This document shows positions 14,717 to 25,379 of a DNA stretch of 64,000 nt, in pieces. The stretch lies in NCBI GenBank assembly GCA_965218425.1, contig OZ244621.1, positions 2,912,001 to 2,976,000 on the forward strand, written 5' to 3'. A program made the translations under genes and the position numbers. This DNA is from an uncultured Candidatus Binatia bacterium. Its GTDB lineage: Bacteria; Desulfobacterota; Binatia; UBA9968; CAXXLF01. Each line of letters begins with the position of its first letter. Position 1 is the stretch's first letter. Below the pieces are notes generated by a model. That model saw only the letters and a list, made by a program, of their open reading frames with translations. It did not search any database and was not told the origin of the DNA.

Positions 14717-14928
14717 TTAGGAATCTTCAAAAATGACAAGGGACTTTGTGGGGTCAATTATAAGTTTCTTCTTGAAAGCCCGTAAGAACTCCATGCCAAC
14801 CAAGATCAAACTTTCAGGTGGGCCAAGTACAATTGTGCCAACCTGATCCTCACTCTCCACTCTGGCAAAACCCCTAGCAGTCAATTGAGAACTCAACTTT
14901 CCATCAGCTAATGTTAAAGGCATTATTC
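14717..14928 (-). pseudogene. Retroviral-like (clan AA) aspartyl protease, C-terminal half, cut by IS3
   Basis: LTLADG...LILVGMEFL..F...LIID; the D(T/S)G active-site half is absent. Confidence 0.55.
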
Positions 14929-14991
14929 TGAGGCGGTCCTGGTTTGTAGGACAGGATGGCGGAAGAAATAAGGTGTATTCCGGGTAATCGA

Positions 14992-15921
14992 TCATGCCGC
15001 CAGGGTCCTGTTTAACACGTTTCGCTGTTCCGGTAGAGCCGGCAGAGGGGCAGTTGAGCTGGGGCGCTCAGGCTGCGTCCGCGGCAGCATTGCTTGTTCG
15101 TAGGCCTCGGCTGGGGTGGAGCCGGCCAAGGCAGAGTGTGGCCTCTCCCGATCATAAAAGGCGAACCAGCAAGAAATCAGGCGCTGAGCCTGGAAGCCGT
15201 CTGAGAGCTCGTGCAGGTAGACGGCCTCGTACTTGAGGGAGCGCCACAGGCGCTCGATGAAGATGTTGTCCATACACCGGCCTCTACCGTCCATAGAGAT
15301 GGCGACACGGGCGTCGTTGAGCACGGAGGTGAACTCCAGGCTGGTGAACTGGCTGCCCTGGTCGGTGTTGAAGATCTCGGGGCGGCTGTAGCGCTGGAGG
15401 GCTTCGGAGAGGGCCTCGACACAGAAGCGTGCGTCGAGGGTGTTGGAGAGCCTCCAGGAGAGCACGCGGCGGGTGGCCCAGTCCATGACCGCCACCAAGT
15501 ACAGGAAGCCGCGCTGGACCGGGATATAGGTGATGTCCGCGGTCCAGACGTGATTGGGCCGCTCGATGGCGACTCCCTTGAGCAGATAGGGATAAACCCG
15601 GTGCTCCGGATGCGGTCGGGTGGTCCGGGGTGCCTGGTAGATGGCCTGCAGACCCATCAGGCGCATCAGACGCCGCACCCGGTGGCGACCCACACGGACG
15701 CCTTCCCGCCACAGATGGCGGACCATCTGGCGGCTGCCGTAGAATGGGTAGCTCAGAAACAGCTCATCGATCCGGCGCATCAACCCAAGATTCTCTGCGC
15801 TCTCGCCCTTGGGCCTGTGGTACACCGAGGATCGGCTCACACGGAGCAGGTGGCATTGACGGCTCAAGCTGAGCTTGGGATGGCCGGGCTCGATCATCGC
15901 CCGGCGCTTCTCCCGGCTCAC
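14992..15921 (-). CDS. IS3 transposase OrfB (DDE integrase core)
   Basis: WTADITY, NTDQGSQFTS, DNIFIERLWRSLKYE and RPHSAL motifs. Confidence 0.93.
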   Translation of the reverse strand: MSREKRRAMIEPGHPKLSLSRQCHLLRVSRSSVYHRPKGESAENLGLMRRIDELFLSYPFYGSRQMVRHLWREGVRVGRHRVRRLMRLMGLQAIYQAPRTTRPHPEHRVYPYLLKGVAIERPNHVWTADITYIPVQRGFLYLVAVMDWATRRVLSWRLSNTLDARFCVEALSEALQRYSRPEIFNTDQGSQFTSLEFTSVLNDARVAISMDGRGRCMDNIFIERLWRSLKYEAVYLHELSDGFQAQRLISCWFAFYDRERPHSALAGSTPAEAYEQAMLPRTQPERPSSTAPLPALPEQRNVLNRTLAA

Positions 15922-16199
15922 CACTTGAGCCCTTTGGCCAAAAAATCCCGCTCCACCGTCAACTCCCCGATCTTCGCGTGCAGGTTCCGGATCTCCCCCT
16001 CGTGCTCCCCACGCGACCGCTCCGCCCCCTTCGAGAAGACCTCCCTCATGCCCTCCACCGCCCGCTGCTTCCAGGTGCTCACCTGGTTCGGGTGTATCTT
16101 GTGCCGCGCCGCGATCTCCTGAATCGTCTTGTCTCCGCGCAGCGCTTCCAGCGCCACCTTCGCCTTGAAGTCCCCGCTGAACCGTCGCCGTGTGCTCAT
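15918..16199 (-). CDS. IS3 transposase OrfA (HTH)
   Basis: RRFSGDFKAKVALEAL..TIQEIAARHKIHPNQVSTWK. Confidence 0.92.
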   Translation of the reverse strand: MSTRRRFSGDFKAKVALEALRGDKTIQEIAARHKIHPNQVSTWKQRAVEGMREVFSKGAERSRGEHEGEIRNLHAKIGELTVERDFLAKGLKW

Positions 16200-16266
16200 T
16201 GCGCATCCCTCCTTCAGTCGGTGGAATACACCTTAGCAACCTGTCCGTTTTTCGGGACCACCTCAT

Positions 16267-16398
16267 CTTGACGAATTTAATTTTAGGTACAACCTAAGAA
16301 AGAGCAAGGATGGCGAACGGTCTATTTTGGCAATCAAAGAGGTAAGTGGAAAACGATTGACTTACAAACAGCCAGTTGAAAAGACCACAGACAAATGA
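16267..16398 (+). pseudogene. IS1595-family transposase C-terminal fragment
   Basis: LDEFNFRYNLRK..DGER......VSGKRLTYKQ, the characteristic IS1595 C-terminus; begins 1 nt after the IS3 end. Confidence 0.88.
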
Positions 16399-16413
16399 TA
16401 CTTTTTTAAGTGA

Positions 16414-16488
16414 TGGGGCGCAGGGGGATCGAACCCCTAGTAAAGCAGATTCCAGGTCTGCTGCGTTTGCCAGTTACGCCAGCGCCCC
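16414..16488 (-). tRNA. Non-canonical tRNA, nominal anticodon UGG (Pro), with C33, A37 and G1:C72
   Basis: Cloverleaf GGGGCGC TG GCGT AACTGGCAA ACGC A GCAGA CCTGGAA TCTGC TTTACT AGGGG TTCGATC CCCCT GCGCCCC A; all four stems pair perfectly; no encoded CCA. Confidence 0.8.
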
Positions 16489-16494
16489 ATAAAA

Positions 16495-16944
16495 CTAAGC
16501 AATAATCTCTTTAAGGTCATCGTCTAGACCAAAGTTGTCTGGAAATTCCCCATCATCCACTTTCTGCTGTTGTTCAAACTCAATTAAGCCATAGGTGTTG
16601 GGTGCGGTCTTTGTAAAGATTTCTCCTTTTTTTGAGTAGCTAGCAAGGGATGCTCCAACCGATGAGCGGTTGTTTCTTGTATTTTCCTTTCCTATACCTT
16701 TGAGAATATCCTTGATGTGCATCGGCCTTCCCGACTTCGTGAGACAATCTCTGGCTTTGGCCATATTGCTGCCTTCCCGTAAAGCACGGTCAGTATCCAC
16801 CGAGCCATCTCTGGGTAAAACCTTTAAGGCCTCTTGCAGACCTTGGATAAATGCTTGTAGTTCTCGTAGCTTAGCCTCAGTTTCAGCTATTTCTTGCTTT
16901 TTTATATCTATCTTTCGTTCTAATTGGATTCGGAAATTAATCAT
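16495..16944 (-). CDS. Coiled-coil plus winged-HTH (HARE-HTH-like) protein
   Basis: N-terminal heptads, then L..SGRPMHIKDILKGI...SVGASL....KKGEIF.K.APNTYGL and an acidic tail; RBS GGAGG. Confidence 0.7.
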   Translation of the reverse strand: MINFRIQLERKIDIKKQEIAETEAKLRELQAFIQGLQEALKVLPRDGSVDTDRALREGSNMAKARDCLTKSGRPMHIKDILKGIGKENTRNNRSSVGASLASYSKKGEIFTKTAPNTYGLIEFEQQQKVDDGEFPDNFGLDDDLKEIIA

Positions 16945-17080
16945 GGCAATTCCTCCAATATGGGAGATTTACCACATTCACCGAACCATTGTCAACATTT
17001 GATGGAAAATGCTTGCGTTGTGACAACAATATGTTATCATTGCACCTGTGAGATTTTACCAAATCTAAACTGGAGGCAAT

Positions 17081-17908
17081 GTGATGGATGTAAATGAAAT
17101 CCATAAAAAGTTAGATCAAATTAAGCACATACAGGACTTGGGGCCTGAGAGAACAGTCGAATATTGGATGGCTAGGGACCTGCAAGTAATACTTGGATAT
17201 GAAGCCTGGCAGAATTTCGAATCCGTGATTGCAAGGGCGATGCATGCTTGCGAAACCAGCGGCAAGAATCCCGACAATCACTTTAATGCTACCATTAAAG
17301 AGATAAGGGCCGGGAAGGGTGCGATAGGACGACGACAGGATTACCGACTGACAAGATACGCTTGCTACCTTGTGACTATGAATGGCGATCCTAGCCAGAA
17401 ATTACAGGTTGGTCTAGCTCAAACATATTTTGCGGTGCAGACAAGGCGGCAAGAACTCGATGACCAGCTAACCTATGAACAGAAACGACTGATTCAACGC
17501 GAACGAGTAAGAAACGCGAATAAGTATTTAAGTAATGCGGCCAAGAAAGCAGGTGTAAAAAAGTTTGGCGTATTTCAGGATGCAGGCTATCGCGGTCTCT
17601 ATCAAATGAGTTATAAAGAGATCAAGCGAACAAAGGGGATTCCAGACCAGGAAAATCTTTTGGATTGTAGTGGACGGGCTGAGCTGGCTGCGAATGAATT
17701 TCGGATTACCCAAACAGAGGAACGTCTTACCAACGAGAAAATCCAAGGGGAAATGCAAGCTACAAACACCCATCATAAAGTGGGCACAAAGGTGAGGCAA
17801 ACTATCAAAGAGCTTGGCGGAACAATGCCAGAAAAACTGGTCGCTGAGCCATCAATTAAAAGATTGACCCAAAAGAAGCAAAAACAGCTACCGCCTAAAG
17901 ATGAATAA
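17081..17908 (+). CDS. dinD: DNA-damage-inducible protein D (Bro-N-like)
   Basis: EYWMARDLQ.ILGY..W.NF, LTRYACYL, AQTYFAVQTRRQE, FQDAGYRGLY and ELAANEFRITQTE motifs. Confidence 0.92.
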   Translation: MMDVNEIHKKLDQIKHIQDLGPERTVEYWMARDLQVILGYEAWQNFESVIARAMHACETSGKNPDNHFNATIKEIRAGKGAIGRRQDYRLTRYACYLVTMNGDPSQKLQVGLAQTYFAVQTRRQELDDQLTYEQKRLIQRERVRNANKYLSNAAKKAGVKKFGVFQDAGYRGLYQMSYKEIKRTKGIPDQENLLDCSGRAELAANEFRITQTEERLTNEKIQGEMQATNTHHKVGTKVRQTIKELGGTMPEKLVAEPSIKRLTQKKQKQLPPKDE

Positions 17909-18032
17909 AAAGACCACGCCACCTGATAAAGAACTCACCGAAAAGCAATTCCTCGAAGTTTTGAAGGGTTTTCTCGAAGTCAAACCAACCAAGAGAAAGC
18001 CCAAGGCAAAAAAACCCAAATCCAAGAAATAA
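17901..18032 (+). CDS. Small basic protein (43 aa)
   Basis: MNKKTTPPDKELTEKQFLEVLKGFLEVKPTKRKPKAKKPKSKK*, overlapping the dinD stop and lying near the IS1595-like end. Confidence 0.5.
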   Translation: MNKKTTPPDKELTEKQFLEVLKGFLEVKPTKRKPKAKKPKSKK

Positions 18033-18087
18033 TTATATTTCAATTACTTACCCTTTCCTGTATTGGGTTTGTGAACGGGATAAGCCA

Positions 18088-18225
18088 CAGTCTGTTAAAG
18101 GCGATAAGGACAAGGCCGTTGGCTTTAACCTAGCAGGCATCAAACAACTTCGATTTACCGATCCAGAACTGGAGTTCACCCCGGCATTGAAGCAAAACAT
18201 CGAGCGTTTCTTCAAATTGAAATAA
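18088..18225 (+). pseudogene. C-terminal remnant of an unknown gene cut by the IS1595 element
   Basis: Open frame QSVKGDKDKAVGFNLAGIKQLRFTDPELEFTPALKQNIERFFKLK* ending 13 bp before mrr. Confidence 0.5.
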
Positions 18226-18238
18226 AAGGACTACTTCC

Positions 18239-19294
18239 ATGGCGATCTGGTTAATCCGTGCCGGTTCCCACGGCGAATACGAGCAGAAGTTCATTCAGGA
18301 AAACCGTGTTTATGTGACTTGGGACAGACTCGATGTAGACCTCACCAAGCTCCAGCAAAAGGCCGATTTGACAGCAGCGATGACCGAGCGCTACCCGGAC
18401 AGAAAGCCCAAGACGATTCAGAATTGGGTGAGCCAAGTCTGGCCCTTCGCGCATGAAATGATGAAAGGCGATTTGGTCGTGTTGCCGCTCAAGTCGCAGC
18501 CCGCCATCCAGATTGCCGAGATTACCGGTGACTATCACTTCGAACCTTCTGGACCCGACCCATACTTTCATTGGCGACCCGTGAAGTGGATTGCAGAGGC
18601 CGTGCCGCGCGCCAATTTCGGCCAGGACTTGCTCTATACCTTCGGTGCCTTTATGGCCATCTGCCGGGTCCAACGCAACAATGCAGAGCAACGCATGGCC
18701 GCCATGCAGACGAACGGATGGAAACCTGAAACCATCCAACCCATCTACAAACCATCCAACATATCTACCAAAACCGCGGTGCCGGGCACGGAAGAACTGC
18801 CCGAAGACAGTGACCTTGAAGAACTCGCCCGCGACCAGATCGCTCAGCTCATCGCAGCGCGATTCAAGGGCCACGGACTCACGCGACTGGTCGAAGCTAT
18901 CCTCAAAATCCAGGGTTACACCACCTATCGCAGCGCGGAAGGCCCCGACGGTGGCGTGGATATTATCGCGGGTGCCGGGCCACTCGGCTTCGGGAAGCCG
19001 CGACTCTGCGTCGAAGTGAAATCAGAGAGCGGCCCTATCGACCGCCCGACGGTAGACAAACTGTTGGGCGCGGTTACTAAATTCGGAGCGGACGAAGGCT
19101 TATTCATCTCATGGAGCGGCTTCAAGGGCAACGTGCAGAAGGAACTCGCTGCCAGCTTCTTTCGTGTGCGGCTGTGGACGCAGAAAGAACTACTTGAGCA
19201 ACTATTTACCCACTACGACCACCTGGACGAAGACCTTAAGGCCGAATTGCCTTTGAAAAGAATTTGGACCGTGGCCGTGCAGGACAAAGAATAA
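18239..19294 (+). CDS. mrr: Mrr-family (Type IV) restriction endonuclease
   Basis: N-terminal WLIRAG..G / GDLVVLP domain; C-terminal DGGVDI..VEVKS Mrr catalytic motif. Confidence 0.88.
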   Translation: MAIWLIRAGSHGEYEQKFIQENRVYVTWDRLDVDLTKLQQKADLTAAMTERYPDRKPKTIQNWVSQVWPFAHEMMKGDLVVLPLKSQPAIQIAEITGDYHFEPSGPDPYFHWRPVKWIAEAVPRANFGQDLLYTFGAFMAICRVQRNNAEQRMAAMQTNGWKPETIQPIYKPSNISTKTAVPGTEELPEDSDLEELARDQIAQLIAARFKGHGLTRLVEAILKIQGYTTYRSAEGPDGGVDIIAGAGPLGFGKPRLCVEVKSESGPIDRPTVDKLLGAVTKFGADEGLFISWSGFKGNVQKELAASFFRVRLWTQKELLEQLFTHYDHLDEDLKAELPLKRIWTVAVQDKE

Positions 19295-19871
19295 CGTTGA
19301 TCTGCTCTCACGCTTCCCGTCCGCCTCAAGGGAGTTGCCATTAACCTCGCTGTGGGGAGATGGAAATAATGAGAAATCTTGGCTAAAACTGTGGATAACC
19401 GGCCCGCTGGCGGCCGGATACGATCCGTCGCCGTTCACCGCGATAGGTACAGGCACGCGGCGGTAGAGATTGTGCCCGCCCGGACGGTCCATAGCGGGCA
19501 GAGGGGTTGCGGGGTCGTCAAAGGTAAGCAGCTCCCGCACTCAGCGCCCAAAGCGTCAGATACGACAAAACCCTGATAAGGTCTCCCTTCGGGGTTTCGC
19601 GTTAACTAACCACCGCCAAAGTTAGCGGTCAGATATACGGCTCCCCGAAGGGAGTTGAATTTGCAGTATAACTAGCTGAATAATAAAGAATTATTTAGCA
19701 CCTATGATTCTATGGACCCACAAGCGGACCCACGAGGGCACTACTTAAGGTCCGAACTTTCGCGAAATTTCGAAATCAATTCGTCGCCCGGGTAGCAGCT
19801 ATTGATCTTTCCAGAAGATGTGTGGACTCGTAGCTGAAGCGTGTGGAGGTCGCTACCCTTGTAACGCCTTA

Positions 19872-20961
19872 TTGAGAACCGCATAATATAGTAACATTGG
19901 ATAAGAACTTAATGTATAGTGGTGGTATGGGAAACCCACTTGGAGTGCGACGGGACTTTGAAGCATTGGAGCGGCGGTGGATGGAGGCGGGGAGGCTGTT
20001 GAAGCGAGGGCTGTCGGAGGCGGAGGTGGCGCGTTGGGTGGGAGTGCACCGCCAGTCGGTGAATCGATGGGCGCGGCAGTTGGCCGAGAGCGGCAGAGCC
20101 GGGCTCAAGCAGGCGGGGCGTGCCGGACGCAAGCCGCGACTGAGCCCGGCGGATCTGAAGAAGATCGAGGGCGGTTTGAAACGGGGACCCGAAGCGCTGG
20201 GGTACGACACGAGCCTGTGGACCGCAAGGCGAGTGGCCCACTTGATTGGGGAAGCCTGCGGAGTCACATACCATCCGGGCCATGTTTGGCGGATATTGCG
20301 GCAGTTGGGGTGGAGTTGCCAGCGGCCGACGGGACGTGCCTTGGAACGAGATGAAGAGGCGATCCGGCAGTGGAAGAAGAAGCGCTGGCCGGAGATTAAA
20401 AAAAAGCCCGAAACGAGGGGCGAACCATAGTGTTCGTGGACGAAAGCGGGCTGAGCGAGCGGCCGAATCGGTATCGTACGTGGTCGCCCCGAGGACAGAC
20501 GCCAGTGCTGCAATATCACTTCAACTGGAAGAGTCTGTCGGCCATCGCCGGAGTCACCTGGTGGCGCTTGTACTTTCGAGTGTATCCGGGAGCCATCAAG
20601 AGCCCCCAGATCATCGAATTCCTGAAGCACTTGATGCGTCATGTTTCCGGGCCGCTGCTGGTAGTGTGGGACGGACTGCCCAGCCACCGGAGCCGGTTGG
20701 TTCGGGACTTTGTTGCCGCTACCGAAGGCGCGTTGGTGCTGGAACGGTTGCCGGCCTATGCACCGGAACTGAATCCCGTCGAATACCTCTGGGGATACTG
20801 GAAGCATCATGAACTGCCCAACTTCTGTGCCAAGGACTTCGCTCAACTCAGCCACCATGCTCGTCGCGCCCTTTGCCGAATGCGCCGCAGGCCTCGTCTC
20901 GTTACCGCCTTCTGGAAACAGTCCAGCCTTTTCTGATGTCATTATATTATACGAGGATCAA
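19872..20961 (+). mobile_element. IS630-family insertion sequence with TA target duplication
   Basis: IRs TTGAGAACCGCATAATATAGTAACAT and (rc) TTGATCCTCGTATAATATAATGACAT; TA at 19870-19871 and 20962-20963. Confidence 0.95.
19927..20936 (+). CDS. IS630 transposase (two ORFs joined by a -1 frameshift at A8, 20398-20405)
   Basis: HTH ORF followed by FVDESG, VVWDG..H and LPAYAPELNPVE motifs. Confidence 0.93.
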
Positions 20962-21349
20962 TAGGTAGTCAGTGAAGAGCTTGTCTTGAATAACCCATGC
21001 AACTAAGGACGTGTGCCCAGGCAGAATTTCAACTGGTGGTTCACCGTTCTTTGGCTGAAGTGGGCAGTCAAGAAAAATTTGGTGATTTCTCCCTCTGCCG
21101 ATAGACCAGTCCATTGCCCTGACGACGACGGGATATCTGCCCTCATTTAGAACTCTGATCCGCGTCCGCGATTCTTCAACGTCAACCCGAGCTTTGAGTC
21201 TTGGACGATTCCGGTAATCGGTCACGCAAGAAACCAGCTTGTTTAGGCAAGAAACCAGCCATGGAAAAAACTCGGTGAGCCCCATCCCGCCCAAACTATC
21301 AGACTGGTTGTAAACGGTCCATCGTCACCAGCCCGGTCGGGCGTAGGGT

Positions 21350-21700
21350 TCAACCCGCCCACACGCAGTCCAACTCCAGATAACGCTGCCCCCGCGCCTC
21401 GGTGATCCCTCCCCGGCACCGCGGAGCCCGATCACCGAATACTACACCCCACCGTCGGCTCGATCGCCGCCGTGCACCCGTTACCGGCGCACACTTCAAC
21501 CATCGTCTACCATCAGCCCCGCCAGTGCCGCGGCTTTCGCTAGATCCATGCCGCCGCCCACCATGCTTTGAAACGCCCGCGCCCGACCGGACAGATCCGA
21601 CGCGCGGAGCTCGTGCCAATCGAGAGTCACTTCGGTTTCTAACTTTCGGGTGAGCTCGTCGGAGACAATGCGACCCAGCCGTGAGACGCAATCGAATAAA
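21350..21700 (-). pseudogene. Degenerate phage/satellite portal C-terminus and head-closure fragments
   Basis: ELTRKL..V.LDW.ELRASDLSGRARAFQSMVGGGMDLAKAAALAGL and a ...QRYLELDC tail. Confidence 0.5.
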
Positions 21701-22526
21701 GAGCTCAAATCTTTTGTTGACGGATAACATCTTCCGGATATTCCAGCCGTCTCCGAAATCTTCTATCCGCCCCACGCTTTAAGTGAATCCCGTGGCGCGC
21801 CCGGCCCGCCGCACCGTAACTCCTCACTCCAAACTCCCTGAAATGGGGGTCGGGCAACATGAAAAAGGGGTCAAGCTCCAGCAGGGTGGCGGTTGTAACA
21901 GCCATCAAACCTGAAAGGAGAAGACCCCCATGCCTTACGTCGGGTTAGACTGTCACAAACGATACGGCCAGGTATATGCCATCGACGAGGCGGTGGTCGG
22001 CGCGGCGGATCAAAAATAATTGAGAATGGCCTGGAAAATTCGAGAAATTCCGGGGCGAACCGACCCGGAAATCGCCCATGCAAAGCCGCTGAAAGGGCCG
22101 TGCATCGACCGCGCTCGATGCTGGCAATACCCGAGCAGCGTGCCGACGTGCGGCAGGTTCTCGCCCGACATGACCGCTTAGTTGGCTAACGTGTAGCGGA
22201 GGTCATGGAGCCAAAGAGCGCCAAGGCTGGCGTGATCGACCGTGCGCAAGGCGCTTGGGGTGGTGCGGCCGGCGCCGTCGTGCCCGATGTTGTCAGATGC
22301 ACACTTCACGCAGTAGTTCGTTCACTGTCACTGATGAACCGGCGGCGGTCCACGGCGGTATCCCCGATGAAGGTTCGCCGCAGCTCTCCCTTGCCGCTCG
22401 CAAAGCATCACGGTATCTTGAGGGGAGCACGATGAGCACACGGAGCCGGGAACAATTGGACTTTGTCGATTCAAGTGAACATGCCGGACGCCGTCCCGGA
22501 CACGATGCGCCCGCGCAACCCATGCC

Positions 22527-25379
22527 ATGACGCCGGGTGAGTTCATCGCCAAGTGGCGGGCATCGGAACTGAAGGAGCGCTCGGCGTCACAGGAGCACTT
22601 CATCGACCTGTGCCGGCTGTTGGGCGAGCCGACGCCGGCCGAAGCCGACCCGACCGGCGAGCATTACTGCTTCGAGCGCGGCTCACGTAAGGATGGCGGC
22701 GGCGACGGCTGGGCCGACGTGTGGAAGCGGCACTGCTTCGCCTGGGAGTACAAGGGCAAGCACGCGGACCTTGACGCTGCCTTCAACCAGTTGCGGCAAT
22801 ACGCGCTTGCACTGGAGAACCCGCCGTTGCTGATTGTCTCGGACATGGTTCGGTTCCGCATCCGCACCAACTGGACCAACAGCGTCAGCCGGACCCACGA
22901 GTTCGACTTGGCCGATCTTGCGGATGCGGCCACCCGCGACAGGCTCAAGTGGGCGATGTCCGACCCCGAGCGCCTGCGCCCCGGCGAGAGCCGGCAGGCG
23001 CTGACCGAACGCGCGGCGGCGGCCTTCGCATTGCTGGCGCAGTCGTTGCGGGAGCACGGCCACGAGCCGCAGGCAGTGGCGCATTTCGTGAACCGTCTGG
23101 TGTTCTGCATGTTCGTCGAGGATGTGGGCCTGCTGCCCGGCAACATGTTCACCCGGATGCTGGAACAAGGGCGAAAGCGGCCCGGGGACTTCGCCGTCAT
23201 GGCGCGGGATCTGTTCGGGGCGATGTCCACCGGAGGCCGGATCGGGTTCGAGGCGGTGGCGTGGTTCAACGGCGGGCTGTTCGACGACGACACCGCCTTG
23301 CCGCTGGACAAGGCGGAGATCGAGACAACGCTCAAGGCGGCGGCGCTCGACTGGTCGGAGATCGATCCTTCGATCCTGGGCACGCTGTTCGAGCGCGGGC
23401 TCGACCCGGACAAGCGCTCGCAGCTTGGGGCGCACTACACCGACCGGGACAAGATCATGCGGATCATCGAGCCCGTGATCATCCGTCCCTGGCTCGCCGA
23501 ATGGGAGAAGACAAAGGCCGAGGTCGCCGCGGTCCTTGAACGGGCGGATGCGGCCAAACCGAAGGCGGCGGCGACTCGACAGCGGGGGCAGGCGGAACGG
23601 CTACTGCGTGTTTTCCTCGAACGGCTGCGGAAGTTCACCGTGCTCGACCCCGCCTGCGGCTCGGGGAACTTCCTCTATCTGTCGCTGCACGCGCTCAAGG
23701 ACCTGGAGCACCGGGTACAGTTGGAGGCCGAGGCGATGGGCCTCGAACGGGCTTTCCCGGCGGTCGGTCCGGCCAACGTCAAGGGGATCGAGGTCAATGC
23801 CTATGCGGCGGAATTGGCCCGCGTATCGGTCTGGATCGGCGATATACAATGGATGCGTCGAAACGGGTTCAACGAATCGCGCGATCCGATCCTCAAGCCG
23901 CTTGACACCATCGAATGCCGCGACGCGATCCTGACACCGGAGGCTGGCGAGCCGGAGTGGCCGGAGGCCGATGTAGTGATCGGGAACCCGCCGTTTCTCG
24001 GCGGCAAGCTCCTGATTGCCAACCTTGGCGAGGACTACGTTTCGAGCATTTTCACGGTGTATGAGGGCCGCGTGCCTGCGGAAGCCGATCTCGTCTGCTA
24101 CTGGTTCGTGAAGGCCGGTAAACATATAGGATCAAACAAGGCGAAACGGGTCGGGCTTGTAGCAACCAATTCCATTCGCGGTGGCGCTAACCGGCGGGCG
24201 CTGCAAGCCGCGACCGAGGGGCGGCGGATCTTCGAGGCATTGAGCGACGAGCCGTGGGTGATCGACGGGGCGGCAGTGCGGGTGTCGTTGATCTGCTTCT
24301 CGCACGCCGCCGCCGAATCCGTGTCCGGCGCTCGGCTCGACGACGAGTCCGTCGACGAGATCTACGCGGACCTGACGGCGCGGAGCGGCGGCACCGGCTT
24401 CGATCTGACGGGCGTCCGGCGTCTTGCGGAGAACGCCAGCGTGGCTTTCATGGGCGACACGAAGGGTGGTCCCTTCGATGTTGCGGGCGATCGGGCGCGC
24501 GGGTGGCTCCGTCTGCCGGCGAACCCGAACGGCCGGACCAACGCCGACGTTCTGAAGCCGTGGGTGAACGGTATGGACCTCACCCGGCGGCCGGCAGGGA
24601 AGTGGATCGTCGACTTTGGGTTGAAGATGTCAGTCGGCGACGGGGCGCTCTACGAAGAGCCGTTCCGGTGGGTGAAGGAACACGTCCGGTCAACATGGGA
24701 CAAGCAACGTGTAGCCGAGAGACGTGATCAGTGGTGGTTGCACCATCGGCCACGGCCGAACATGTGGGCGGCGCTCGGCAAGCTGTTGCGCTTCATCGCC
24801 ACGCCGACAGTGGCAAAGCACCGACTGTTCGCCTGGCTCGACGCCCGCATCTGTCCGGATCATCAACTGATCGTCATCGCGCGCGACGACGACACGACCT
24901 TCGGCATCCTGCACAGCCGCTTCCACGAAGCGTGGTCGCTCAGGCTCGGCACCAGCTTGGAAGATCGCCCGCGTTACACGCCGACCACTACCTTCGAGAC
25001 CTTCCCTTTCCCGGAAGGGCTGTCGCCCGACATTCCCGCCGCCGACTATGCAAACGACCCGCATGCTAGGGCCATCGCCGAGGCCGCGCGGAGGCTTGTC
25101 GAACTGCGCGACCGCTGGCTCAACCCGCCTGAATGGGTGGAATGGGTAGACGAGCCGGTCCCCGGCTATCCCATGCGTCCTGTCGCCCGCGACCAAGCGG
25201 CCGCGAAGGAACTCAAGAAACGCACCTTGACCAATCTTTACAACGCCCGTCCGCAATGGCTCACCGACGCCCACGTGAACCTCGACGCTGCCGTCGCGGC
25301 AGCCTATGGATGGGATGCCGGGATTTCAGAGGATGAAGCCCTGAAGAAACTGTTAGAATTGAACCACCAGAGAAAATGA
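22527..25379 (+). CDS. MmeI-like Type IIG/IIL restriction-modification enzyme (nuclease-MTase-TRD)
   Basis: WADVW..FAWEYK nuclease motif, GAHYT, LDPACGSGNFL, GNPPF, RYTPTTTFETFPFP and LTNLYN. Confidence 0.93.
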   Translation: MTPGEFIAKWRASELKERSASQEHFIDLCRLLGEPTPAEADPTGEHYCFERGSRKDGGGDGWADVWKRHCFAWEYKGKHADLDAAFNQLRQYALALENPPLLIVSDMVRFRIRTNWTNSVSRTHEFDLADLADAATRDRLKWAMSDPERLRPGESRQALTERAAAAFALLAQSLREHGHEPQAVAHFVNRLVFCMFVEDVGLLPGNMFTRMLEQGRKRPGDFAVMARDLFGAMSTGGRIGFEAVAWFNGGLFDDDTALPLDKAEIETTLKAAALDWSEIDPSILGTLFERGLDPDKRSQLGAHYTDRDKIMRIIEPVIIRPWLAEWEKTKAEVAAVLERADAAKPKAAATRQRGQAERLLRVFLERLRKFTVLDPACGSGNFLYLSLHALKDLEHRVQLEAEAMGLERAFPAVGPANVKGIEVNAYAAELARVSVWIGDIQWMRRNGFNESRDPILKPLDTIECRDAILTPEAGEPEWPEADVVIGNPPFLGGKLLIANLGEDYVSSIFTVYEGRVPAEADLVCYWFVKAGKHIGSNKAKRVGLVATNSIRGGANRRALQAATEGRRIFEALSDEPWVIDGAAVRVSLICFSHAAAESVSGARLDDESVDEIYADLTARSGGTGFDLTGVRRLAENASVAFMGDTKGGPFDVAGDRARGWLRLPANPNGRTNADVLKPWVNGMDLTRRPAGKWIVDFGLKMSVGDGALYEEPFRWVKEHVRSTWDKQRVAERRDQWWLHHRPRPNMWAALGKLLRFIATPTVAKHRLFAWLDARICPDHQLIVIARDDDTTFGILHSRFHEAWSLRLGTSLEDRPRYTPTTTFETFPFPEGLSPDIPAADYANDPHARAIAEAARRLVELRDRWLNPPEWVEWVDEPVPGYPMRPVARDQAAAKELKKRTLTNLYNARPQWLTDAHVNLDAAVAAAYGWDAGISEDEALKKLLELNHQRK

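Follow-up and report, generated by a model that had tools for sequence, protein, structure and literature searches.

Leucine-type tRNAs with proline anticodons in IS1595-family transposons match a fixed codon of the carrier's own transposase

Programmed frameshifting throttles the transposases of IS1 and IS3, in which only a fraction of the ribosomes make active enzyme. Phage suppressor tRNAs, which serve recoded stop codons, and bldA of Streptomyces are cases in which the productive reading of a chosen set of genes depends on a tRNA. The elements described here would differ from both. Unlike IS1 and IS3 frameshifting, the change that we propose is an in-frame, sense-to-sense one that needs a trans-acting tRNA of the element; and whereas phage suppressors and bldA read a stop or a rare cognate codon, here a common sense codon would be overridden with another amino acid. 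We take the carriers to be ISNwi1/ISNha5-like transporter IS of the IS1595 family. Siguier et al. are said to have described, in 2009, such IS1595-family transporter IS with passenger genes, of ISNwi1/ISNha5-like type. The likeness lies in a transposase with DDE_Tnp_IS1595 and zinc-ribbon domains, terminal inverted repeats (TIRs) of about 25 bp, an 8-bp duplication and small cargo. We found no published account of tRNA cargo or recoding in IS1595 transporter IS, nor of IS1595-borne tRNAs or a transposon tRNA matched to its transposase, in a search of mostly open-access text.

The closest described tRNAs are of two kinds. Allo-tRNAs are mobile tRNAs of mismatched identity that have a long variable arm and neighbour the genes of transposons and toxin-antitoxin systems; in E. 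coli some of them work as missense suppressors (Mukai et al. 2017, PMC5389517; PMC7609411; accessible text of both). In those portions of the work their acceptor branch is 8/4 or 9/3, the D arm resembles that of tRNA-Sec, the identity is Ser or Ala and the anticodons are many, whereas the family described here has a 7/5 branch and a Leu-type body, carries UGG nearly always and is matched to a codon of its own transposase. The accessible text of the allo-tRNA papers (PMC5389517, PMC7609411), with the supplement searched by term, holds no mention that we could find of IS1595 or of a codon match. The tRNA-ProX genes of Streptomyces and Kitasatospora, as presented in the available part of PMC11415595, are natural mistranslating tRNAs of dual identity and, like the window tRNA, have a base other than U at position 33. 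They differ in having a Pro body, Ala, Asn or Thr anticodons and a dedicated synthetase, ProRSx (PMC11415595, same part), whereas the present family combines a Leu body with a Pro anticodon and has its target codon in the carrier's own gene. No synthetase cluster was found among the neighbours of the family tRNAs.

The window, a stretch of 64,000 nucleotides from an uncultured Candidatus Binatia bacterium, holds the right half of an IS1595 cargo transposon. Its features are as follows.

14929..16266, minus strand: IS3-type element with inverted ends and without a target duplication; one end abuts the transposase remnant
16267..16398, plus strand: C-terminal 43 codons of an IS1595-family transposase (profile match, E 5e-11, model positions 279-316)
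16372..16374, plus strand: CCA codon at the C-terminal site (KRLTY-K-Q-P-V), cognate to the UGG of the tRNA; Leu in tRNA-less elements
16414..16488, minus strand: tRNA with Leu-type body and Pro anticodon UGG (ARAGORN, Rfam)
16495..16944, minus strand: coiled-coil and winged-HTH protein, 149 aa, HARE-HTH-like (Pfam, structure model)
16945..17080, no strand: divergent intergenic region (comparison with the G214 sister element)
17081..17908, plus strand: Bro-N domain protein (Pfam Bro-N, E 5e-7)
17901..18032, plus strand: tiny basic protein of 43 aa, of a kind usual in such elements (visual assignment)
18063..18088, minus strand: probable, weak right TIR of the IS1595 element (matrix of 51 TIRs)

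The transposase remnant converges on the tRNA gene across a 15-nt gap, and the rest of it is missing, cut at the end of the IS3-type element. Because that end abuts the remnant and the IS3-type element has no target duplication, a deletion promoted by the IS3-type element probably accounts for the missing left part of the IS1595 element. The N-terminal part of the transposase was not found in the host genome, and an intact form of the element was not seen in four sequencing runs. The 43-aa remnant alone has no Pfam match; the IS1595 profile that recognizes it was built from neighbours with PF12762 and PF12760, and the best matches of the remnant are the transposases of UGG-tRNA elements. The first-pass annotation had placed the tRNA inside a transposon, which is right, except that the transposon is this IS1595 remnant and not the intact IS3-type element adjoining it. 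Of the outer ends, the left is missing and only a weak right TIR is present: 18063-18088 is the window's best match to the matrix, with a score of 12.7 where background sites in the genome reach 20. The stretch 16224-19600 recurs with 0 differences in an independently assembled contig of run X1, which may be the source sample.

A sister element in the same genus (genome G214, 76% identical) shares the gene order of transposase, HTH and Bro-N and lacks the tRNA. A perfect -35 hexamer ahead of the HTH gene, and the bases that precede the -10 position, are conserved in the sister element; this suggests a promoter, and a consensus scan gave no call there. The Bro-N protein, presumably DinD-like, is cargo common to both elements, and its DNA is 75-82% identical to that of L191. 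Two small-protein profiles gave no match to the 43-aa protein. To the left of the IS3-type element, a gene remnant (14717-14929, minus strand) has a motif that we take to resemble the C-terminus of a retropepsin-like protease, and it matches neither Pfam nor a similar gene near the G214 element. A defence-type island with an Mrr-family nuclease and an MmeI-type methyltransferase lies on the other side (18239-25379) and includes a further transposase-like pair (19897-20936). It also holds a short hairpin like the 3' end of a tRNA gene (19630-19660, minus strand), single-copy in the genome and possibly an old attachment site.

The tRNA gene is a 75-nt cloverleaf that ARAGORN calls tRNA-Pro(UGG) and that scores 53.3 bits against the Rfam tRNA model (gathering score 29), with Watson-Crick pairs at 21/21 stem positions in the sequence and the Rfam alignment. 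It starts 6 nt after the HTH stop codon (16495-16497). Its predicted fold, a cloverleaf at -33.4 kcal/mol, was equalled by 4 of 200 shuffles. The first reading had described a perfectly paired cloverleaf with anticodon loop CC-UGG-AA (C33, A37), first pair G1:C72, a variable region of 6 nt and no encoded CCA, and all of this is borne out by the sequence and alignment; A73 is the discriminator. A complete set of tRNAs is encoded by the host, among them canonical Pro(UGG), Pro(GGG) and Pro(CGG) and five Leu tRNAs, so the tRNA in the element is an extra gene.

The identity of this tRNA appears to be leucine-type rather than proline. In E. coli, tRNA-Leu is recognized by its D loop, A15:U48 and A73, and LeuRS does not read the anticodon; bacterial proline determinants are G72, G15:C48 and G37, and also G35 and G36 with A73 (both from the accessible part of PMC9976931). 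Set against that partial list, the window tRNA has the Leu-body marks A73, A14, A15:U48, G18G19 and A20a, and its tertiary pairs G18:U55, G19:C56 and U54:A58 fit a tRNA-Leu body. It lacks the proline features G72 (in C1:G72), G15:C48 and G37 and has A73, G35 and G36. The non-proline identity suggested at first reading thus agrees with the marks, and the host ProRS is of the bacterial type. Two leucine features are absent: the anticodon is UGG, without A35, and there is no long variable arm of type II. According to the available text of PMC6614811, E. coli LeuRS charges long-armed tRNA-Leu only, and the LeuRS of Streptomyces (S. coelicolor) charges short-armed and long-armed tRNA-Leu alike. Viral loci L061, L063 and L032/L055 encode tRNAs that combine a short arm and this same D arm with ordinary Leu anticodons, so short-armed Leu-type tRNAs exist in phages. 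Since its transposase is truncated and it has lost the long arm that E. coli LeuRS needs, the window copy is probably a weak or inactive relic. Its intact stems mean either that the arm was lost recently or that the RNA is still of some use.

Relatives of the window tRNA form a family. Our search pattern combined a Leu-type D arm with a YY-NGG-AA loop, which fixed the D arm and G35, G36, A37 and A38 in advance. It matched 106 loci across 185,579 species genomes, and viral contigs gave 25 more. With the window, 132 matches were parsed, giving 97 full cloverleafs, 92 of them distinct. Position 34 was free, and the anticodons were UGG in 82, AGG in 5, CGG in 4 and GGG in 1; a variable anticodon, one of the checks proposed at first reading, is therefore not a trait of the family. 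Among other free positions, A73 occurs in 84/92, U48 in 92/92 and G1 in 83/92; C1:G72 with A73 occurs in 7/92, and CCA is encoded in 18/92. C33 is a lineage trait of 16/92, and five protein-selected members have G37. The acceptor/T branch of the parsed relatives is 7/5, as in the window, and the other 91 members have variable arms of 14-51 nt, the window tRNA being the sole one without a long arm. The marks of allo-tRNAs (G73/U73 or G3:U70, a Sec-like D stem with tetraloop) were not seen, with A73 in 84/92; the Leu-type D loop of the relatives was imposed by the pattern and is hence no independent test of this. Covariation at 16 of 20 pairs over 30 tRNAs is partly circular, as the rows had been chosen for pairing. 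The nearest relatives of the window tRNA, compared over the core without the variable arm, are L241 (55/69) and L211 (53/69).

Hosts of the family include Acidobacteriota, Planctomycetota, Pseudomonadota, Gemmatimonadota and Myxococcota, among others. The pattern is absent from 60 relatives of the window's host, as expected of a horizontally moved element, and the window tRNA gene gave short pieces only, or nothing, against named phages and plasmids. The earlier view that the tRNA is no product of random decay is supported: it is mobile and maintained.

The constant partner of these tRNAs is an IS1595 transposase. Among 64 tRNA loci with at least 1.5 kb of flank on each side, 41 have one within 3 kb, in 24 cases downstream and convergent as in the window, and 23 have none within that distance. 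The tRNA often lies 5-120 nt from the convergent transposase stop. In 13/13 elements with both TIRs and the 8-bp duplication, the tRNA lies between the TIRs. These intact elements span 1.8-3.4 kb (L264, 1.8 kb; L245, 2.2 kb), with small cargo, TIRs of about 25 bp and a transposase of the DDE_Tnp_IS1595 plus zinc-ribbon type. When viral contigs were scanned for the same D arm with a non-Leu anticodon (at least 120 loci, 40 of them with 300-nt flanks only), IS1595 stood beside 4/20 Pro-anticodon loci and 0/100 others among the matches listed. Directly upstream of the tRNA, L205, L223 and L261 or L228, L263 and L293 (Gemmatimonadota-type) have an Xre-ImmA/IrrE fusion or a SecB-like chaperone, a hint of stress or phage control.

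The HTH gene proved to be a looser associate. With only 6 nt between its stop codon and the tRNA, the two are probably co-transcribed. The structure model of its product has a 39-residue helix and a winged HTH and no fold match at E <= 0.001; Pfam HARE-HTH (PF05066) matches at E 6e-5 and 23.7 bits, below the gathering cut-off of 25.9. The protein occurs as cargo of IS1595 and IS1 elements, and its family has 1,308 representatives at E <= 0.001. It had no match in named phages and plasmids, and its alignment found no viral locus among 34 candidates. We followed the linkage through 16 metagenome loci, 300 other genomes of the class (12 with homologs) and loci met otherwise. No Leu-body tRNA lies behind the gene at 15 metagenome loci (of the 16 fetched, one has no downstream sequence), one of which has a canonical initiator tRNA 100 nt downstream, or at eight close homologs in genomes (G087, G183 and G213 among them are unpublished). 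The tight pairing of HTH protein and tRNA claimed at first reading thus fails, the tRNA being present at 0/23 close loci, the sister element included, and for this lack of constant linkage we rejected a fixed module or a protein-RNA toxin-antitoxin pair.

The pairing does recur, at L327 (again with a 6-nt gap), L335 and L336; at L028, within an IS1 element, the partner is a Ser-body tRNA(UGG). Among IS1595 loci selected by protein, the HTH family is present at 2/18 with the tRNA and 1/92 without it (p 0.07). Some 30 genes upstream of tRNAs resemble a helix plus winged HTH by eye; HARE-HTH matches only three, and iterating a profile built on the HTH domain brought in none of the other genes upstream of the tRNAs. 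Many homologs (P0002-P0024) end in an acidic D-D-I-P-F tail, absent from the window copy, which we presume to resemble the SSB C-terminus. At L028 (1949-2044, genome G068), the Ser-body UGG tRNA stands 44 nt behind a distant HTH homolog in a host with its own Ser(UGA); a Ser-body UGG pattern gave two matches in viruses, neither called as a tRNA.

An initial test of the transposases for CCA avoidance in UGG elements found the reverse. CCA makes up 28% of their Pro codons, compared to 13-14% in tRNA-less transposases of like GC3 and to 8-13% for A-ending codons in other four-fold boxes. The excess sits at fixed columns: CCA accounts for 81/103 Pro codons at columns that are hydrophobic in the tRNA-less Leu clade and for only 7/107 at true conserved prolines. 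The main site is the third residue after K-R-L-x-Y, in the C-terminal motif Y-x-x-L-[IVT]. At distinct sites of RNA-selected UGG elements it is Pro in 33, always as CCA, and another residue in 12. As a control we took 110 IS1595 loci picked by protein, a sample that leans to the clade of the tRNA-bearing elements that made up most of the query alignment; 18/110 have a Leu-body tRNA with a Pro anticodon, some of them the same elements as in the RNA-selected set. Their UGG elements add five CCA and five other residues, and L252, L446 and the window also have CCA, so that CCA occupies 41/42 Pro sites in UGG elements. The lone exception, L334, has CCG and a very long-armed UGG tRNA that only Rfam sees.

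The codon changes with the anticodon. AGG elements have CCT in three cases and Leu in one; CCT was predicted beforehand for further AGG elements and was found in 2/2 (L455, from the unpublished genome G312, and L480), making CCT 5/5 Pro sites, one of the five from G312. In a quick tree of 105 of 146 rows, the full-length AGG-CCT rows form two neighbouring groups among the UGG rows, so the nominal p of 7e-7 overstates the association, and the sequences suggest one to three independent joint switches of codon and anticodon. Among the CGG cases, L223 has Gln at the site; in four other CGG genomes a transposase was absent or did not share a locus with the tRNA. The family and the coupling of codon to anticodon are well supported.

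In elements without the tRNA, Leu stands at the site in 30, the codons CCT, CCA and CCC in 8, 2 and 1, and a different residue or a stop in 26. Rows of the tRNA-less Leu clade have Leu in 33/33, and the G214 sister element has Leu too. The next residue is mostly V, I or T in frame, both in the Pro elements and after the Leu of tRNA-less ones. Neighbouring codons vary synonymously and the site Pro codon is constant, among transposases only 30-60% identical, and CCA is kept where the tRNA stands on the other side of the gene. L347, L423 and L424 have CCA at the site without a detected tRNA. Conversely, the site accepts other residues in some lineages: in 17 UGG elements it holds Q, A, T, S, V, H, L or a stop. 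Four of the 17 lack CCA at any recurrent site, and most of the 17 keep it at an N-terminal site. One UGG element, L352, has an in-frame stop at the main site, with L-I in the -1 frame.

The N-terminal site behaves differently. It is Pro in 38/38 of its subclade (CCA in 34), never Leu, and five of these elements have no detected Leu-body tRNA; the AGG and CGG elements have CCC and CCT there, without an anticodon match (L412 is from the unpublished G087). The fold prediction places the site in a helix; at the C-terminal site the prediction is unreliable, and we found no solved IS1595 transposase structure. CCA is also enriched in the inter-domain linker and occurs at an apparently true proline of the tiny cargo protein in 17/33, so not every CCA marks a lost Leu. 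Two other accounts were set aside. A +1 frameshift at CCA is not supported, the +1 frame after it giving L-[TVI] in 0/33. Editing of the mRNA from C to U, suggested by the many NCN codons at the site, would leave the link between third base and anticodon unexplained.

A sister lineage seems to reach leucine by another route. In a tRNA-less clade nested among the tRNA elements, Leu stands in the +1 frame at the site in 23/23, compared to 0/33 and 0/30 in controls. The 3' ends of these transposases are listed here.

+1 clade, part 1: L357, L360-L363, L366-L368, L370-L374, L376, L379
+1 clade, part 2: L380, L384, L386, L388, L394, L407, L409, L410

The +1 Leu is followed by T, V or I in 22/23, is encoded by TTA or TTG in two and is reached across an in-frame stop in one. 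The motif often follows tandem Arg codons, the site codon in this clade is nearly always N-C-T, and the eight tRNA-less CCT cases fall mostly within it. In AGG elements, which also have CCT, the motif continues in frame, so they are not of the +1 kind. Rfam found no frameshift-suppressor tRNA in 15 of 16 loci of the clade, and L371 has an odd tRNA. A programmed +1 frameshift in the last transposase codons is a likely explanation, and probably an undescribed one. Leu in the +1 frame in 23/23 suggests that leucine matters at this residue and is reached by recoding.

The data show the tRNA family, its place inside the TIRs, the fixed codon, the match of codon to anticodon and Leu in the tRNA-less clades. 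We propose, with a probability of roughly 0.55, that the element's tRNA puts Leu at a Pro codon of its own transposase and thereby gates the activity of the enzyme. In intact members, host LeuRS would charge the tRNA with leucine, judging by its identity marks. The charged tRNA would compete with host tRNA-Pro at CCA, or at CCU where the anticodon is AGG, and the transposase gene would keep the cognate codon at one to a few fixed sites, chiefly in the C-terminal Y-x-x-L-[IVT] motif. Ordinary decoding would yield a Pro-containing, poorly active transposase, and only chains with Leu from the element tRNA would be fully active, so that transposition would be throttled and tied to expression of the tRNA operon. 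Expression, leucylation, decoding, the Pro-off/Leu-on switch and any control by the HTH protein are the parts that we infer. In the sister lineage the tRNA would have been replaced by the +1 frameshift at the same residue, and as a side effect mobile DNA would spread host-wide Pro-to-Leu mistranslation across many phyla. For the full scheme, a private code of IS1595 elements with a Leu-charged tRNA, a fixed Pro codon, joint switches, the +1 replacement and host-wide mistranslation, we see about an even chance. Of the four functions offered in the first-pass annotation, a mischarged or recoding tRNA is the best; for a decoy, an antitoxin or a processing signal we found no evidence.

The match of anticodon and codon would fit equally well if the tRNA were a brake or sensor that misreads or stalls at the fixed CCA and lowers transposase output, as self-repression or to control copy number, or if the codon marked a site of tRNA-dependent pausing or frameshifting, with leucine not needed. 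The invariant proline at the N-terminal site (38/38) and the CCA enriched in the variable linker and at the true proline of the tiny protein favour such a role, as does C33 in 16/92, given that position-33 changes damp decoding in other mistranslating tRNAs (PMC11415595, accessible part). We nonetheless consider it unlikely; against it stand Leu in 33/33 tRNA-less Leu-clade rows and in the +1 frame of 23/23 in the other clade, the freedom of true prolines from CCA bias (7/107) and the 0/33 for L-[TVI] in the +1 frame after CCA. A general Pro-to-Leu mistranslation toxin for abortive infection, dormancy or addiction, restrained by the HTH protein or a protease-repressor and merely carried by the transposon, would suit the upstream neighbours (HTH-like proteins, three ImmA/IrrE-Xre fusions, SecB-like chaperones), the defence-type island of the window (Mrr, MmeI) and the 23/64 long-flank loci without IS1595 within 3 kb. 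It leaves unexplained a fixed cognate codon that changes with the anticodon and finds no fixed antitoxin partner, with the tRNA at 0/23 close HTH loci, and we judge it distinctly improbable.

Two further readings concern what the RNA does in translation. It could function simply as a proline tRNA and supplement, for the genes of the element, the decoding of CCA, a codon less used in GC-rich hosts. Such a tRNA would also be expected to match the codon, G35 and G36 with A73 are proline determinants (PMC9976931, available text), and 7/92 members have C1:G72 with A73; G1 in 83/92, A15:U48 with a long arm throughout the 92-member family, and a host with its own tRNA-Pro(UGG) and bacterial-type ProRS speak against it, and supply does not account for CCA being fixed where other elements have Leu but not where proline is genuine. 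Hence we give it only a slim chance. Slimmer still is that of a non-decoding cloverleaf (a processing signal, a terminator or a decoy for anticodon nucleases) that closes the HTH transcript, with a codon pattern of DNA-level or phylogenetic cause. In its favour, the gap to the convergent transposase stop is often 5-120 nt, translational activity is absent from many allo-tRNAs, and related elements share codons by descent, but neighbouring codons vary synonymously around a constant Pro codon, and CCA persists with the tRNA on the other side of the gene and among transposases only 30-60% identical.

If leucine insertion by the element's tRNA is the right reading, transposition would be under a new kind of control, and there would be a natural example of an element whose own tRNA recodes a sense codon with a single gene as the target. 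It would give a concrete job to mismatched-identity tRNAs, whose purpose is open for allo-tRNAs and tRNA-ProX, and would mean that mobile DNA can take a cause of mistranslation from one phylum to another. In annotated IS1595 transposases, key residues may then be wrong, and 'tRNA-Pro' calls in these elements would be mis-annotations. The window copy is damaged, and the intact elements of 1.8-3.4 kb are better suited to study.

Other mismatched tRNAs also stand at IS1595 elements (L341, L342, L359 and L334:5725-5811): L341 and L342 combine a Leu body with UGC, and a Leu body with GGA and a Ser-like tRNA with CGC occur as well. Recoding of GCA by the UGC tRNAs of L341 and L342 was rejected, as Ala is normal at that column and no codon matches. 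In viral loci (L081, L089, L119, L137, L154 and others), Leu-type D arms come with the stop anticodons UUA and CUA and with Gly, Asn, Arg, Ala and Cys anticodons, none beside IS1595 in the flanks examined. Finally, two odd tRNA-like genes of 68-70 nt with TGG in the middle loop, called by ARAGORN at a low threshold only (L442:2035-2102 and L443:3343-3412), adjoin transposases that keep the N-terminal CCA.
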